A stretch of DNA of 64,000 nt from a phage. A model generated the notes under the pieces. That model searched no databases. It was not told where the DNA came from and was given only the letters and a program-made list of their open reading frames with translations. Each line of letters begins with the position of its first letter. Within the stretch, counting starts at the first letter, position 1. A program made the position numbers and the translations under genes. The stretch lies in the sequence record PQ724394.1; one strand, 5' to 3'. Below are positions 18,983-59,806 of the stretch, in pieces.

Positions 18983-19089
18983 TACTTTCCAAAAATACCA
19001 TTCATACACATGCTGAACACGATACCAAAGCAAAAACATGCAGCGCCGAATTTAAAAACATCCCACCCATCGATACAGGCTTCAATCAT
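18982..19089 (-). CDS. Small hydrophobic peptide (35 aa from internal ATG), translationally coupled to o-spanin
   Basis: ATG at 19089 overlaps o-spanin stop (ATGA); MIEACIDGWDVFKFGAACFCFGIVFSMCMNGIFGK. Confidence 0.35.
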   Translation of the reverse strand: MIEACIDGWDVFKFGAACFCFGIVFSMCMNGIFGK

Positions 19090-19376
19090 TTGCACTTCTC
19101 CTCTTTTAGTCCAGAACGATAATAACATAACATAGATTTTTGGTCTTGTACATATCTTTTTACGTCGTTCAACCAAATGCGGTGTTCTTGAGAGTCTTCA
19201 AATGGCATTCCTACCCAAGCCTTACCATCGAGTACCTTAACCTGCCACTTAACATTATGTTCGGCAATAGGTTGTGGCCATGAAGGGTGGAGTTGTTGTT
19301 TAGGCGCTACAGGAACATCCTGGGCACATCCAACTAGCAATCCAATAGATAACATTACAGCAGCCAATTTAATCAT
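19086..19376 (-). CDS. Outer-membrane spanin lipoprotein (Rz1-like; T4 pseT.2 equivalent)
   Basis: Signal peptide with lipobox LLVGC; start overlaps i-spanin stop (ATGA). Confidence 0.65.
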   Translation of the reverse strand: MIKLAAVMLSIGLLVGCAQDVPVAPKQQLHPSWPQPIAEHNVKWQVKVLDGKAWVGMPFEDSQEHRIWLNDVKRYVQDQKSMLCYYRSGLKEEKCK

Positions 19377-54572: not shown

Positions 54573-54776
54573 TCAATTCAGGTTACGTTTAAAAATATCT
54601 GCTACTTCAAGGAGCTCTTCCTTAGTAGCGATGTCGTTGAGTATTTTATATCTGATTTCTTTAAAGCGTTCTTTAAAATCTTCAGCTGCATTGATATCAA
54701 AAAATCTCTGGATTAGCCGGAATTCTTTGTGGACAGCTTTATCAAACAAATCAATGTTGACTTTAAAGTTTGTCAT
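54573..54776 (-). CDS. Hypothetical protein (67 aa)
   Basis: ORF directly upstream of rIIA. Confidence 0.45.
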   Translation of the reverse strand: MTNFKVNIDLFDKAVHKEFRLIQRFFDINAAEDFKERFKEIRYKILNDIATKEELLEVADIFKRNLN

Positions 54777-55086
54777 TTTTAACTACCTCATGTTGAACAT
54801 ATTCTCTGGTAGAACCCAGTTCAGCCAGAATTCTTCTCATAGAACCCATTGTACTTTTGTGCTCTCTGTGGCGATACAATATCTCTAAAACCTTTTCCTG
54901 GACAACAGGAGAGAGTGCCTGGTTATCTTTAATCTTTAAGGCAATAGATTTTACAGCCTTGAGATATTCTAGTCCCTTACCGCTCGTAATCACTACTCCT
55001 TCATCTTTACAGTTACGAATGGCAGTCTCCATAAAAGACAAAGCCAAGTTATCAGTATTCACTATACTATTATCTTGCATAATCAT
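54763..55086 (-). CDS. Hypothetical protein (107 aa)
   Basis: ORF. Confidence 0.45.
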   Translation of the reverse strand: MIMQDNSIVNTDNLALSFMETAIRNCKDEGVVITSGKGLEYLKAVKSIALKIKDNQALSPVVQEKVLEILYRHREHKSTMGSMRRILAELGSTREYVQHEVVKNDKL

Positions 55087-55160: not shown

Positions 55161-55322
55161 TTAGATGCTTGAATCGACTCTATAAACTTGACCACGGGTT
55201 TGGTAAACTTCGCCGTCCCATGTTTCAACTGTGATAGTAACGTACTCGGCAAAAAGAGGACGTGTATCTGTCCAGAGATAACCATATTCACCTGTGACGA
55301 GCGTAACCCAGTACTTTCTCAT
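55161..55322 (-). CDS. Small protein (53 aa), not in ORF track
   Basis: MRKYWVTLVTGEYGYLWTDTRPLFAEYVTITVETWDGEVYQTRGQVYRVDSSI; strong AAGGAG RBS; followed by terminator. Confidence 0.45.
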   Translation of the reverse strand: MRKYWVTLVTGEYGYLWTDTRPLFAEYVTITVETWDGEVYQTRGQVYRVDSSI

Positions 55323-55364: not shown

Positions 55365-57182
55365 TTATGACATCCAAGCCTTACGCAGCTGTGGGTCGTT
55401 TCCAAGGAGCATTTCGAACTGGTCTTTCCAATCTTCAGGTAATTGAACTACATCGAATTTAGGGTCTTGAATCATTCGACGGTATTCAGCCTTCTCAAGA
55501 GAACCGAGACCTTTAATATAACGAATAGAATGTTTTGGTAGAGAGTCCTTAGCTTTGGTATAACTAGGTACATCATAGAACCATTCCTGTTCTTTACCAA
55601 CCTGGGCAATGATTACAGGAGTCTTACAGAAACGAATTCGTCCCTGTTCGAACAATTCCGGCCACTGACTAAAGAAAGCTAATAACGAAGGATAAATCGA
55701 ACCGGTACCATCCACATCGGCGTCAGTCATGATAGCGATATTACGATAGTTGGTTTTATCTGCGGGTTCACCAATAACCAGTCCAGTGATTGCACAGATA
55801 TCAAACAATTCTTTGTTCTTCATGATATCGGCAGCAGTCATACCCCAGGTATTCATAACCTTTCCGCGTAACGGATAACCACCTTGGAGGTCTTTATTAC
55901 GAACTTCAATAAAAGGGCCCATTGCGGAATCACCTTCCGTAAGGAATAAAGTCGTATCAGCATCTTTGCCATACATATTGGCTTTAATATGCTTATGGAC
56001 CTTGGCTTTCAAAGCTTTCTTAGCAGCTTTTGTTTCGGCGGCTTTTTCAGCAGCGAGTTTACGTGCTAAAGCTGCTTCGACAATAGGCATAATCAACCCA
56101 TCGACCTTAAGAATAGCCGTTGCAATTTTCTTAGCATCAATTTGGATATGGTTACGAATCTCACCAAACGGAGAGGTTAATCGCTCTTTAGTCTGTGAAT
56201 CAAAACGCATATTGCTCATATCACGAATGAACATTACCATAGTAAGGCATTCTTTAACACGGGCCTTAGTTACTTCGATTCCTTTATATTTCTTTTTAAT
56301 ACCAGGCAGAAGATGCTCACAGATATCATCAAACACACATTCAACGTGGTGACCACCGTTCTTAGTATGGATATTGTTTACATACGTCAGTTGACGGAAC
56401 CCGTCCGGAGAAGGAGTAAATGCCATCGAAACATTATCAGTTTCTTGGATTACAAAGTCTTCACCAAATTGCTTAGCATACTTTTTAAAGTTACCATCTA
56501 CTTTTTTACCATTAAAAGTAAATTGGATATCTGGATAAATTACGGCCAGTGTTTGAAGGCGGTCTAATGTAATATCCAGATAAATTTGGGACAGGCTATT
56601 TTCTTCGAAATGGTTAAAGTCTGGGGTGAATATAACCGAAGTACCCTTACCTTTAGATTTCTTAGTAGACCAACCTTTGTTTTCCATTCCATTGGAACAG
56701 TTAACAGTAATCTCATTCTCACCATCAGAGGTGATGCCTGTGAACAAAACAGAGAAGATATTAGTTAAACTACTACCAACACCGTTCATGCCGCCCGTCT
56801 TACGCTCAGCGTCATCTCCAAAGTTACCACCGGCCTTTGGAATAGTCCATGCAGCTACAGGACCCGGAATTTGTTCACCATTTTGGTCGGTAACCATTGC
56901 TTGAGGAATACCACGGCCATTATCAGAAACTGAAACCTGATTATTCTTAATTTGGACATCAATTTTATTTGCGAATTTAAAATTGGTACGAATAGCTTCA
57001 TCGACAGAGTTATCAATGATTTCGTCAATTAATTTAACCAGTCCAGGAACATAGTTCACCTGGGTAAAATTACCAAACAGGAATCGACCGTGAGCTTCAT
57101 TAGCACTTGAGCCAATATACATCCCACTACGTTTTTTGATATGTTCAATGTCGGACAGTACTTTAATTTCATTCTTAATCAT
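55365..57182 (-). CDS. 39: DNA topoisomerase II large subunit gp39 (GyrB-like), one contiguous 605-aa ORF
   Basis: GHKL ATPase and TOPRIM-like regions (e.g. EGDSA); single uninterrupted ORF. Confidence 0.9.
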   Translation of the reverse strand: MIKNEIKVLSDIEHIKKRSGMYIGSSANEAHGRFLFGNFTQVNYVPGLVKLIDEIIDNSVDEAIRTNFKFANKIDVQIKNNQVSVSDNGRGIPQAMVTDQNGEQIPGPVAAWTIPKAGGNFGDDAERKTGGMNGVGSSLTNIFSVLFTGITSDGENEITVNCSNGMENKGWSTKKSKGKGTSVIFTPDFNHFEENSLSQIYLDITLDRLQTLAVIYPDIQFTFNGKKVDGNFKKYAKQFGEDFVIQETDNVSMAFTPSPDGFRQLTYVNNIHTKNGGHHVECVFDDICEHLLPGIKKKYKGIEVTKARVKECLTMVMFIRDMSNMRFDSQTKERLTSPFGEIRNHIQIDAKKIATAILKVDGLIMPIVEAALARKLAAEKAAETKAAKKALKAKVHKHIKANMYGKDADTTLFLTEGDSAMGPFIEVRNKDLQGGYPLRGKVMNTWGMTAADIMKNKELFDICAITGLVIGEPADKTNYRNIAIMTDADVDGTGSIYPSLLAFFSQWPELFEQGRIRFCKTPVIIAQVGKEQEWFYDVPSYTKAKDSLPKHSIRYIKGLGSLEKAEYRRMIQDPKFDVVQLPEDWKDQFEMLLGNDPQLRKAWMS

Positions 57183-57206
57183 GTTATTTCCTCATGTAGT
57201 AGGAGA

Positions 57207-57231
57207 ATATTATCCCATTTCACTTAAAGCA
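57207..57231 (-). promoter_or_regulatory. MotA-dependent middle promoter candidate for gene 39 (TGCTTTA, 12 nt, TAATAT)
   Basis: Minus strand TGCTTTA 57231-57225, TAATAT 57212-57207. Confidence 0.5.
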
Positions 57232-57234
57232 TAA

Positions 57235-57250
57235 AAGGGCCGAAGCCCTT
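57235..57250 (-). terminator. Rho-independent terminator (UUCG hairpin + UUUUAU) after lipoprotein gene
   Basis: AAGGGC-cgaa-GCCCTT. Confidence 0.6.
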
Positions 57251-57509
57251 AATCAAATCGAATGGTCGACTTTTTAAAGAATAACCCAGAACAAACTGTT
57301 CCTTCAACCCTTTTACCTGTCGGCCCTACAGCAATAAAGCCTGTACGCTGGAAATCATCTTCAGAACAGCCAAATAAGTTGTATCCTGTGATTTGGATTT
57401 GTTCGTAGCCATTTGCATCCAATACACGGGTGGCATTATCGGCATCAGTACAACCAACCAACGAAACTGCTAGTACAAGAGCTGCAATAGAACGATTAAC
57501 ATATTTCAT
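57249..57509 (-). CDS. Predicted lipoprotein (86 aa)
   Basis: Signal peptide with lipobox LVGC (MKYVNRSIAALVLAVSLVGCTD..). Confidence 0.55.
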   Translation of the reverse strand: MKYVNRSIAALVLAVSLVGCTDADNATRVLDANGYEQIQITGYNLFGCSEDDFQRTGFIAVGPTGKRVEGTVCSGLFFKKSTIRFD

Positions 57510-57515
57510 AATTTC

Positions 57516-57692
57516 TCACTTAGTTAGCAGGTCATAGAACCCGCCGTTAACATGTTTAGGAGCTGAAACTAACCGAACAGCCAGCCGATGGCAATCAGGG
57601 CAAACATCATTATCTCTTTCAGAGATTTTCTTGATTTTTTCGTATTCTTTTGCACAGTCTTCGGATTGGCATTTGTAATCATAAAGCGGCAT
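57516..57692 (-). CDS. Small zinc-ribbon protein, FmdB-like (58 aa), not in ORF track
   Basis: MPLYDYKCQSEDC...CPDC: two CxxC pairs with the Y.YKC N-terminal pattern of FmdB-family zinc ribbons. Confidence 0.5.
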   Translation of the reverse strand: MPLYDYKCQSEDCAKEYEKIKKISERDNDVCPDCHRLAVRLVSAPKHVNGGFYDLLTK

Positions 57693-57693
57693 A

Positions 57694-58131
57694 TTATTCC
57701 TTAAAGTGGGCTTTCAACATCTGGTAAACTGTCCAGGCTTCAGAATTATTAGAGATAGTGATTTTAGTCAAAGGGAAATCACTCGGTTCAGATGGGGCTG
57801 CGTCTTCAGACTGGTCTTCGTCTTCAGAAAAACCATCTTCGGCCCATTCGTCTTCACTGTCAACTACAACCATTTCCGTAAAGAATTTACGCTCGCTTGG
57901 ATATAAAACCATATCAATGTTATCACCATAAGCCAAGTCCACGTTCATCACATAACCTGCCGCTAATCTAACAGGGCAAAAACCTTCAGCATTGACAATA
58001 ATATCGGCTAAGCTAGAATTATCAGGATTCCTAATATTATGGGCATTCAGCTTACGGAATTCAGCTTCTGCCGCGTCATCTTTAAAATAGTACCATTTAC
58101 CTTTTTCAAATTCGAGTTCTTGATTAAGCAT
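57694..58131 (-). CDS. Hypothetical protein with acidic C-terminal tract (146 aa from internal ATG)
   Basis: ATG 58131 with GGAAGGAA RBS; DSEDEWAEDGFSEDEDQSED tract. Confidence 0.45.
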   Translation of the reverse strand: MLNQELEFEKGKWYYFKDDAAEAEFRKLNAHNIRNPDNSSLADIIVNAEGFCPVRLAAGYVMNVDLAYGDNIDMVLYPSERKFFTEMVVVDSEDEWAEDGFSEDEDQSEDAAPSEPSDFPLTKITISNNSEAWTVYQMLKAHFKE

Positions 58132-58342
58132 TGTAAGTTTCCTTCCAGAAGTCGGTGCCTTCAGCAGTGATTTCACGGAACACTGCATAGATAGGATTTT
58201 TATCACCTTGATTTTCGTATACATAAACCGACGATAAATGAGAAAACGTATCAGAATGTTCCTTTTGAACCACGATTAAATCAGGGTTGAACAGAACATC
58301 TTCAAATTCTTCACGAGTCGAGTTCACAGTAACTTTAGCCAT
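58124..58342 (-). CDS. Hypothetical protein (72 aa)
   Basis: ORF with cassette upstream. Confidence 0.45.
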   Translation of the reverse strand: MAKVTVNSTREEFEDVLFNPDLIVVQKEHSDTFSHLSSVYVYENQGDKNPIYAVFREITAEGTDFWKETYNA

Positions 58343-58415
58343 TTTATTTTCCTCTCATTTGTTGATAGGGTAATCTTATCACTACCCTACCGTATTGTAT
58401 ACTGTTTTTTAACCT

Positions 58416-58979
58416 TTATGCACGGTGAATGTTAGCATATTCAACAATAAAGCTTTCAGGAACAACCTTAAAGGTTCCAAGGAACACGATGTTATAGAGC
58501 TTAACGCCACCTTCAACCCACTGGTCTGTGATGTAACCAGACATGCTACTGGTTTCGTAAGTACCAAAAGGTTCGTCAACATATTTGAACGGTTTAGGAG
58601 TATTAAAACACACTCCTCGACCTAATTTCCATTTGAAATCAACGCCAACATGAGACTGGTCGATGGTTTCAACGTCTTGAGCTACTACGCCGCGAATATC
58701 ATTGCTTTCACATACATACCCATCATGGGATTCAACTTCTTCAACCACTGGGGTATGAACAAGTTCAGGAACTATTGGACGCGCTTTCCAGCCCTTAGGA
58801 ATCAAAGTGACATGGCGTTCTTTAACATAACCTACAATTGAAGAAACGAAACCACTGGAACGAAATGCCTGGACTTTAACAAGACCACGAGAGAAATTGA
58901 ATCCAATAATAATACATTTTTTACCAGCAACTTTAGATTTAGAATCTTCGGAAACCGTTACGATATCACCAATTTTCAT
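58416..58979 (-). CDS. Hypothetical protein (187 aa), shares C-terminal domain with next gene
   Basis: C-terminus ..ITDQWVEGGVKLYNIVFLGTFKVVPESFIV similar to 59057-59806 C-terminus. Confidence 0.5.
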   Translation of the reverse strand: MKIGDIVTVSEDSKSKVAGKKCIIIGFNFSRGLVKVQAFRSSGFVSSIVGYVKERHVTLIPKGWKARPIVPELVHTPVVEEVESHDGYVCESNDIRGVVAQDVETIDQSHVGVDFKWKLGRGVCFNTPKPFKYVDEPFGTYETSSMSGYITDQWVEGGVKLYNIVFLGTFKVVPESFIVEYANIHRA

Positions 58980-59056
58980 AATATTACCTTTTGTTTAGGA
59001 ATTAGGTTTATTCTCCATAAGAGCCATTATAACATGGCCCTCGATAAAGTAAACTA

Positions 59057-59806
59057 TTAATTCAATACATTAACCACTGCACTACGAGGTACTACGCTAA
59101 AATCACCAGCATGTACAACGTTCAGCAGCTCAACACCATCTTCAACCCACTGGTCTGTTACCCATCCACAGATAGGATTATCAAAAGGACGACGGATAGC
59201 CACAGCAGCACACAACAGGTCGGTAGGGCCTTGTTCTTCAACTTCTTGGAACAGGATGAACTCATCTTCATAAACCAGGTTTTTCTCTATTTTGTTATTA
59301 TCTAACCGGCGACCGTGGACGACGTAAGATTTGTCAAACCACTCACTTTTGGCGAATTCTTCAACAATAAATTCGCCTTCGCCAAAAACATAAGTCAGAG
59401 TTTTATAACCGGAAATCAAGGCTTTAGTTTTAAATTCAGGTTCAACCAGTTTATAGGTTTTGCCGATTTCGATAGTCTGAGTAGTCATAGTGGGTTCCTT
59501 AATTTCCAGTGGTTTAACAAGAGTGCCGTACATGCTTGCAATGTCAAAATCAATTAGTTGCTTTGGAGCTAAGCTAATAAAAGCATCAATTTCTCGTTGC
59601 GACAATCGAATAGTATGGATATCCGGAACACCGCACTCTTGAACTGTCACAGATTTAATGTTATCAAACTCGTCGGGTTCAATAGAAAGAATACGAAATT
59701 CGTTTCCTTTAGTCATCTTTTTAAGGATGTCATAAGCTTGGTTGTAGAGCTTAAGGTCTGCAAATGGCGTAATAATATATTTGGCATTCGGATCGAAAGT
59801 ATTCAT
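59057..59806 (-). CDS. Hypothetical protein (249 aa), shares C-terminal domain with previous gene
   Basis: C-terminus ..VTDQWVEDGVELLNVVHAGDFSVVPRSAVV. Confidence 0.5.
   Translation of the reverse strand: MNTFDPNAKYIITPFADLKLYNQAYDILKKMTKGNEFRILSIEPDEFDNIKSVTVQECGVPDIHTIRLSQREIDAFISLAPKQLIDFDIASMYGTLVKPLEIKEPTMTTQTIEIGKTYKLVEPEFKTKALISGYKTLTYVFGEGEFIVEEFAKSEWFDKSYVVHGRRLDNNKIEKNLVYEDEFILFQEVEEQGPTDLLCAAVAIRRPFDNPICGWVTDQWVEDGVELLNVVHAGDFSVVPRSAVVNVLN

Follow-up and report, generated by a model that had tools for sequence, protein, structure and literature searches.

The two small open reading frames that lie between goF and gene 39 in this phage DNA (sequence record PQ724394.1; the whole stretch of 64,000 nucleotides that was analysed is referred to below as the window) are orthologues of the catalogued T4 genes 39.2 and 39.1, and are thus already known. 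The explanation that best accounts for the observations as a whole, and which we consider very probably correct, is that these orthologues form the tail of an early operon, that they encode a GroEL modulator and an envelope lipoprotein, respectively, and that they are neighbours through synteny. A sequence-only reading of the window had described them as a zinc-ribbon and lipoprotein pair sharing one middle-type promoter and one terminator. That observation was real, in that ORF calling recovered frames of 58 and 86 aa, 6 nt apart on the minus strand, but the orientation relative to gene 39 and the promoter were wrong; both genes are annotated in related phages, and the function of gp39.2 is published. 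As both frames correspond to catalogued T4-type genes, the finding is largely ordinary and its main effect is to tidy the annotation, what was supposed to be a two-gene cassette being the tail of an early operon. The remaining value lies in gp39.1, a very widespread phage lipoprotein that is early-transcribed, probably located in the outer membrane and detected as a protein in T4 infection.

The window comes from a JS98-like phage of the T4 type (DNA identity 98-99%), and the interval 57100-57800 was likewise 98-99% identical to the corresponding region of JS98-type phages (Dhakavirus, Tevenvirinae: UP19, JS98 and JS10). When the JS98 RefSeq annotation was mapped onto the window, the order in the direction of transcription was dexA, motB.2, motB.1, motB, cef, goF, 39.2, 39.1 and gene 39, with two small ORFs followed by rIIA.1 and rIIA on the 3' side of gene 39 (Table 1). 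This whole gene block is transcribed from the minus strand, with 39.2 and 39.1 ahead of gene 39, so that the two are located 5' of gene 39 and not downstream of it as had been proposed. The JS98-type records carry annotated 39.1, 39.2, goF, cef and motB genes in the order found in the window, and the T4 order is identical. The zinc-ribbon frame had also been called unannotated, but both genes are named, as 39.2 and 39.1, in JS98, JS10, IME08 and many more records. Each of them is conserved in about 1000 phage records, far above chance expectation. The gene 39 product encoded here is the unsplit 605-aa form (39 plus 60). A search with Rfam over 56500..59200 returned one sub-threshold chance match and nothing else.

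Table 1. Coordinates of genes, transcription signals and protein features discussed in the text (positions are those of the window).
Feature	Position	Strand	Description
motB	58416..58979	-	JS98 annotation mapped onto the window
cef homologue	58124..58342	-	72 aa; Pfam T4_Cef, E=8.5e-34; JS98 annotation
goF (comC-alpha) homologue	57694..58131	-	145 aa; JS98 annotation; phrog_622
gene 39.2	57516..57692	-	58 aa, FmdB-type zinc ribbon; 39.2 in JS98 annotation
gene 39.1	57249..57509	-	86-aa prolipoprotein; ORF and phrog_902
gp39.1 signal peptide (predicted)	57453..57509	-	residues 1-19
gp39.1 lipobox Cys20	57450..57452	-	LVGC
gp39.1 mature domain	57252..57452	-	residues 20-86; contains C48 and C73
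gene 39	55365..57182	-	large topoisomerase II subunit; next gene 3' of 39.2/39.1
Rz1-like spanin	19086..19376		phrog_812
early-type sigma-70 promoter-like site	59026..59053	-	TTTACT, 16-nt spacer, TG-TATAAT; before motB
MotA-like site, weaker	58454..58429	-	before cef; motif scan
intrinsic terminator	57235..57250	-	hairpin AAGGGC-UUCG-GCCCUU then UUAUGCUUU; directly after 39.1 stop codon
middle-type promoter for gene 39 (putative)	57207..57231	-	MotA-box TGCTTTA, 12-nt spacer, -10 TAATAT

The genes upstream of the pair are closely packed: the 3' end of cef overlaps the start of goF by 8 nt, and a single nucleotide separates the goF stop codon from the ATG of 39.2. A motif scan found no promoter-like sites between goF and 39.2, and because the frames overlap or abut and this interval has no promoter, 39.2 and 39.1 are best regarded as the final cistrons of an early unit that begins further upstream. 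This tightly packed unit would run motB-cef-goF-39.2-39.1 and would end at the hairpin terminator, just before a separate middle promoter for gene 39. The middle-type promoter that had been assigned to the pair proved to belong elsewhere, as the sole nearby combination of MotA-box and -10 (57231..57207, minus strand) comes 3' of this hairpin and points towards gene 39, and this site aligns with GCTTTA...TATAAT, which precedes gene 39 in T4. The next motifs of this kind were at 58454 and 59051. Transcription through 39.2 and 39.1 most likely starts at the early-type site before motB (59026..59053). Because the number of matches in the promoter motif scans was no higher than in shuffled sequence, these promoters are ones that we infer. 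According to the supplementary tables of PMC9697503, the T4 RNAs of motB, cef, goF, 39.2 and 39.1 are all classed as early, which also argues against a private transcription unit driven by a middle promoter. Candidate promoters inside goF were discarded, as they either overlapped the 39.2 start codon or had a poor -10.

The shared terminator, by comparison with the promoter, was found as described. The hairpin, of six pairs with a UUCG loop and followed by the U-tract UUUUAUGCUUU, is placed right after the 39.1 stop codon and was the only terminator-like site that a pattern scan detected in 56900..59100 (57250..57235, minus strand). Its minimum free energy of -9.3 kcal/mol is not exceptional when set against shuffled sequences (z = -1.2). 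At the equivalent position T4 has the hairpin GGCC-UUCG-GGCC where the window has GGGC-UUCG-GCCC, and since both sides of the stem have changed together, the stem has been kept in T4. A terminator is also annotated at the equivalent place in Yersinia phage fPS-2.

The first of the two proteins, gp39.2 (MPLYDYKCQSEDCAKEYEKIKKISERDNDVCPDCHRLAVRLVSAPKHVNGGFYDLLTK; 58 aa), has the pattern MPLYDYKC-x4-C...C-x2-C, in which C8, C13, C31 and C34 are the predicted zinc ligands, and ends in the tail motif SAPKHVNGGFYD. It scored above the curated cut-offs of both Pfam PF09723 Zn_ribbon_8 (43.9 bits; cut-off 34.4) and TIGR02605 for the FmdB family (45.4 bits; cut-off 31.3), and shares with these families (PF09723; TIGR02605 CxxC_CxxC_SSSS) an N-terminus of the form MP-x-Y-x-Y-x-C and two zinc knuckles about 18 residues apart. 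The assignment to the FmdB-type zinc ribbons is thus upheld, although the cysteine arrangement that had been given for it needs correction, the first knuckle being C-x4-C and not CxxC. Poor conservation of the cysteine spacing in homologues had been named as a reason to abandon the assignment; since all four ligand positions were kept, with one replacement by His, in 18 distinct phage homologues from viral contigs, this reason does not apply. The spacing of the first knuckle ranged from 1 to 4 residues across the 18 homologues: T-even and JS98-type phages have C-x4-C, the remaining ones C-x-C, C-x2-C or C-x2-H. Conservation among the homologues extended to the tail SAP...GGFYD, and similar ribbons are present also in rV5-like and other phages.

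Comparison with the protein from resequenced T4, gp39.2 (NwgI), showed 54/58 identical residues over the full length and the same gene order, goF-39.2-39.1-39, in JS98 and T4, which together identify the window's gp39.2 as the NwgI orthologue. Both proteins are of 58 aa with the same C-x4-C...C-x2-C arrangement and the same C-terminal GGFYDLL tail, and in both phages the gene immediately follows goF and is succeeded by 39.1 and 39; the four substitutions are E11K, N28T and the final two residues. T4 gp39.2/NwgI, which Georgopoulos described as a protein of 58 aa (PMC5153855), modulates host GroEL (Ang & Georgopoulos, Genetics 2012, as reported in passages of PMC5153855 and PMC4396842), and a T4 39.2 deletion mutant is blocked on specific groEL mutant hosts (same passage of PMC5153855). 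The earlier description of the zinc ribbon as a protein of unknown function is therefore superseded by published work on its T4 orthologue, as those passages report it. GroEL modulation was shown for T4 and is transferred to the protein of the window by orthology. The window's gp39.2 would be a cytoplasmic FmdB-type ribbon that binds or acts on host GroEL, shifting it to an open state that accepts the co-chaperonin, and this action would aid phage growth when GroEL function is limiting.

Two other interpretations of this locus were weighed against a GroEL modulator encoded beside an unrelated lipoprotein. RefSeq labels gp39.2 as an 'FmdB-like transcriptional regulator', and membership of FmdB/Zn_ribbon_8, together with a match to phrog_1076, which is labelled transcription regulation, would fit a regulator. 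To our knowledge the FmdB label stems from a putative regulator, with no experimental result behind it for the phage members, and the RefSeq name is a transfer of the family name and not a finding. Whereas the family name implies regulation, the phage member T4 gp39.2 acts on a chaperonin: where the orthologue has been studied by experiment, the result indicates GroEL (PMC5153855 and PMC4396842, in the passages cited), and Pfam recognised no DNA-binding domain in the 58-aa ribbon, making the regulator improbable. The annotation is best read as the GroEL modulator gp39.2, neither a protein of unknown role nor a 'transcriptional regulator'. The original proposal went further. It would make the pair a self-contained cassette, transcribed from a middle promoter of its own and closed by its own terminator, whose zinc ribbon regulates or inhibits and acts together with a lipoprotein that serves exclusion or receptor masking. 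The genes are indeed 6 nt apart with a common terminator, and lipoproteins of other phages (T5 Llp and Cor) exclude superinfection. Among 80 viral-contig loci with a relative of 39.1, 27 were T4-like (defined by gene 39 downstream of the 39.1 relative), and in 26 of these a 39.2-like ORF preceded 39.1 (median offset 268 nt). However, phmmer, which could miss a short ribbon, found a 39.2-like ORF within 4 kb at none of the 53 other loci, and RB43, Aeromonas phage G2, Myxococcus phage Mx1 and Microcystis phage Mwe-JY26 likewise have 39.1 without 39.2 and with unrelated neighbours. Clustering of all ORFs within 2.5 kb at the 80 viral loci gave no recurrent neighbour of 39.1 outside the T4-like phages, and in T2 an ORF of 105 aa is inserted between 39.2 and 39.1. 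The functional pair is therefore contradicted by the failure of the two genes to be co-inherited outside T4-like phages and by the T2 insertion, and the cassette is further opposed by the absence of promoter-like sites between goF and 39.2, the position of the MotA-type site after the terminator, the early class of both T4 RNAs (PMC9697503, supplementary tables) and the different, cytoplasmic role published for gp39.2 (PMC5153855 and PMC4396842, as above); we consider it very improbable. Since the two families occur independently and one protein is cytoplasmic while the other is exported, their adjacency is better explained as inherited synteny than as a two-component system. The orthologues gp39.2 and gp39.1 would act in different compartments, as neighbours by synteny and not as the halves of a two-part system.

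The second protein, gp39.1, has the features of a prolipoprotein. Its n-region contains K2 and R6, residues 7-19 form a 13-residue hydrophobic core with a mean hydropathy of 2.45 (the hydrophobic stretch being SIAALVLAVSLVG), and L-V-G-C follows, its Cys being residue 20. The protein obeys the PROSITE-type lipoprotein rule (positive n-region, hydrophobic h-region, lipobox [LVI][ASTVI][GAS]C and Cys at residues 15-35); of the window's 171 ATG-initiated ORFs with 50 aa or more, just 2 do so, the other being the Rz1-like spanin. In the family, the lipobox Cys column was Cys in 205/222 members, and Pfam LPAM_1 was matched by 14 of the 51 members searched, so that on this point, the existence of an 86-aa lipoprotein with a lipobox, the initial description is confirmed. 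Several family members that have no lipobox carry an N-terminal membrane anchor in its place, which suggests that what the family conserves is the attachment of a periplasmic domain to a membrane. Position +2 after the lipobox Cys was Thr in 140/181 members, and because Thr and not Asp follows the Cys, the E. coli +2 rule predicts sorting to the outer membrane; lipidation and outer-membrane localisation of gp39.1 are both predictions of this kind. Two further cysteines, C48 and C73, were both present in 212 family members, both lost in 4 and discordant in 3, and in 2 of the discordant members the Cys was displaced by merely one position. As both residues are kept or lost together, a C48-C73 disulfide in the mature domain is likely.

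The family to which gp39.1 belongs is large. The protein gave a full-length profile match to phrog_902, which has no assigned function (E=8e-35), and was 67/86 identical to gp39.1 of resequenced T4, with which, as with PHROG 902, it shares the 86-aa length, the lipobox, the two further Cys residues and the position, and from which it shows no structural difference. Relatives were found in 1065 phage records by tblastn, and a profile search gave 2249 clusters at 50% identity (E<=0.001). The conserved columns include C48, C73 and the FK-x-STIRF C-terminus. Across phages of E. coli, Klebsiella, Aeromonas, Myxococcus, Microcystis and Brevundimonas the mature domain is 43-60% identical, and the distant relatives among these (Aeromonas, Myxococcus, Microcystis and Brevundimonas phages), at 43-49% identity, have the lipobox and both further cysteines in every case. 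By contrast with these numbers in phages, a scan of 185,579 species genomes (one genome per bacterial or archaeal species; narrow patterns from a 10-sequence gp39.1 alignment) detected the family in just two contigs, both metagenome-assembled, one of which carried phage-type primase-helicase and DNA polymerase genes. Since the scan gave only these two contigs, one of them phage-like, the family appears to be essentially restricted to phages. Searches of Pfam with gp39.1 and 51 family members matched only the lipid-attachment-site model and no family model, those of NCBIfam and PADLOC with gp39.1 gave nothing meaningful, and the literature searched (on gp39.1 and on T-even lipoproteins) reported no function for gp39.1.

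The AlphaFold2 model of the mature domain (mean pLDDT 84) has one helix and then four antiparallel strands, and it predicts a compact domain in which the helix packs on the four-stranded sheet, putatively a cystatin/PepSY-like roll; as such rolls are small and common, the resemblance is a lead and not a sign of membership. Rolls of this kind (B. subtilis YpmB, 2gu3; cystatins; the periplasmic domain of VirB8; the colicin M immunity protein Cmi, 2xgl) are 7-15% identical to gp39.1 in sequence and would resemble it in fold only. Foldseek with the full-length model against the PDB gave nothing significant (best E 0.35), and neither gp39.1 itself nor its family profile matched any PDB sequence. 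Against viral predicted structures, Foldseek with the mature model retrieved only uncharacterised members of the family, from PG7, Atu_ph07 and N1M2.

These properties allow a role for gp39.1 to be proposed. On its sequence, the protein would be exported, lipidated at Cys20 and then sorted to the outer membrane, where it would present a compact and probably disulfide-stabilised domain to the periplasm. This domain would bind, and probably inhibit or shield, a universally conserved component of the envelope (a peptidoglycan hydrolase or a protease). As the domain is conserved across unrelated Gram-negative hosts, such a component is a likelier target than a strain-specific receptor, although this choice of target is speculation. 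The fold and the tethering are compatible with binding to, or inhibition of, a periplasmic enzyme, and this is a tentative possibility; the fuller proposal, that the family consists of tethered cystatin/PepSY-like domains that bind a conserved envelope component and either inhibit a hydrolase or protease or block genome entry, is doubtful as a whole. A general block of phage entry by gp39.1 is conceivable. The idea of an envelope target is offered as a lead and not as a result. If it were true, gp39.1 would join Imm and Sp as the third of the early factors by which T-even phages protect the envelope or exclude other phages, and a conserved target would be relevant both to the biology of the envelope in phage-host interaction and to superinfection exclusion.

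Closer to what had been suggested for the lipoprotein, gp39.1 could be a superinfection-exclusion or progeny-protection protein of the T5 Llp or Cor kind, blocking a receptor or DNA entry from the periplasmic face. T5 Llp and Cor are lipoproteins that exclude superinfecting phages, and the timing of expression and the location of known exclusion proteins are like those of gp39.1. The similarities with T5 Llp and with Cor of T1/phi80 are that all are small phage lipoproteins, predicted to be in the outer membrane and expressed before lysis, and a small lipoprotein that is transcribed early, directed to the envelope, predicted to contain a disulfide and essentially restricted to phages is what this explanation would call for. 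However, the 43-60% identity of the mature domain in phages of very different hosts is difficult to reconcile with it: T-even receptors vary even among close relatives, so that a receptor-specific binder would be expected to diverge faster than gp39.1 has, and receptor masking in particular is unlikely because the domain is conserved in phages whose receptors differ. In addition, comparison with the PDB sequences and with Foldseek linked gp39.1 to no characterised exclusion lipoprotein, either by sequence or by fold, the solved structures including complexes of T5 Llp, and the two Llp and Cor proteins differ from gp39.1 in having no detectable sequence or structural similarity to it. T4 already has two proteins, Imm and Sp, to which its superinfection exclusion is attributed. 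Taken together, these points make an exclusion lipoprotein of the Llp or Cor kind unlikely. A part in lysis, as an o-spanin-like lipoprotein or a lysis-timing factor, would suit a small lipoprotein of the predicted outer membrane, and in T4, where the 39.1 RNA is early, the gp39.1 protein was found by mass spectrometry and is of the late protein class, that is, it accumulates late (PMC9697503, supplementary tables). The window, however, already has an Rz1-like spanin (phrog_812; Table 1), gp39.1 is predicted to be folded (pLDDT 84) and not proline-rich or disordered, and 39.1 has early genes around it, the lysis genes being distant and no i-spanin partner nearby, which leaves a lysis function hardly credible. 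An o-spanin identity was accordingly rejected, the neighbours being goF, 39.2 and gene 39, the mature part folded and the spanin of the window elsewhere. A tethered periplasmic binder of a conserved envelope component, tentative as it is, remains the reading of gp39.1 that we prefer.

The commonly used T4 reference differs from the window at both genes. In T4 RefSeq NC_000866 (AF158101), 39.2 is of 45 aa and 39.1 of 65 aa without a signal peptide, and a remnant reading MKYISRSIAALVLAVSLINSTDAD-stop is found upstream of the 65-aa 39.1. Eleven other T4 assemblies (T4T, three KJ4776xx records, MT984581, OL964735, OL964745, MZ375356, OZ035787, OZ209023 and OZ209057) all differ from NC_000866 in an identical manner, with 96.7-97.1% identity over 481 nt. 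The legacy T4 sequence at 39.2/39.1 most likely contains errors, or else represents a degenerate laboratory allele. Whichever is the cause, the reference conceals the lipoprotein nature of gp39.1, and as it truncates the gene and removes the signal peptide, the role of gp39.1 may have escaped notice in T4. In MT984581 both proteins are intact, at 58 and 86 aa and with the lipobox LIGC, and the 58-aa length agrees with the description of T4 gp39.2 by Georgopoulos (passage in PMC5153855).

The T4 reference sequence differs from resequenced T4 at the 39.2/39.1 locus. In the RefSeq record (NC_000866, 5380-5860), 39.2 is cut short at 45 aa and 39.1, which has lost its signal peptide, at 65 aa, when compared with the resequenced T4 MT984581; two 1-nt insertions together with clustered substitutions account for both truncations. 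Intact 58-aa and 86-aa forms are common to eleven resequenced T4 records, which are 96.7-97.1% identical to RefSeq over 481 nt. The truncated forms are most likely a legacy sequencing error. In T2 (AP018813, 1201-2015) an inserted 105-aa ORF separates the two genes, and the record labels 39.2 as 'kilA anti-repressor' and 39.1 as 'XRE family transcriptional regulator'; neither label agrees with the family matches of the orthologues in the window.

The sequence-only reading had described 39.2 as unannotated, but this applied to the wrong gene: what is locally unannotated is two small conserved ORFs between rIIA.1 and gene 39, both absent from the annotation of the JS98 RefSeq record. The 107-aa ORF has an identical counterpart in JS98; in the 53-aa ORF, the last residue alone departs from the JS98 sequence. 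Gene 39 itself is a single gene spanning T4 genes 39 and 60 and is without mobA, 60.1 and the gene-60 bypass region.

Features of the window, with family matches
Feature	Coordinates	Strand	Match
Rz1-like o-spanin, MIKLAAVMLSIGLLVGC...	19086..19376	-	phrog_812, E=1e-42
107-aa conserved ORF	54763..55086	-	Pfam DUF7367, E=3e-44
53-aa conserved ORF	55161..55322	-	phrog_4369, E=1e-29
Gene 39, unsplit, 605 aa	55365..57182	-	
motB	58416..58979	-	
249-aa ORF, motB.1 position	59057..59806	-	

Besides 39.1, the only ORF in the window that satisfied the lipoprotein rule was the Rz1-like o-spanin. Some members of the gp39.1 family carry an N-terminal transmembrane anchor in place of the lipobox; the proteins noted as variants were P0131, P0138, P0148, P0155, P0169, P0171 and P0109, the last of which (142 aa) appears to contain two domain copies in tandem.

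The 249-aa ORF that takes the place of motB.1 exceeds JS98 motB.1 (approximately 182 aa) in length. Its C-terminal motif, roughly 40 aa long (…TDQWVE-GV-L-N-V--G-F-VVP-S…), is present in MotB too, and phrog_2333 is also matched by the MotB C-terminus. Within goF, an Rfam match to archaeal snoRNA sR12 (57903..57953, minus strand) scored 18.9 bits (E=0.59), below the gathering score of 38 for that model, and was taken as chance.
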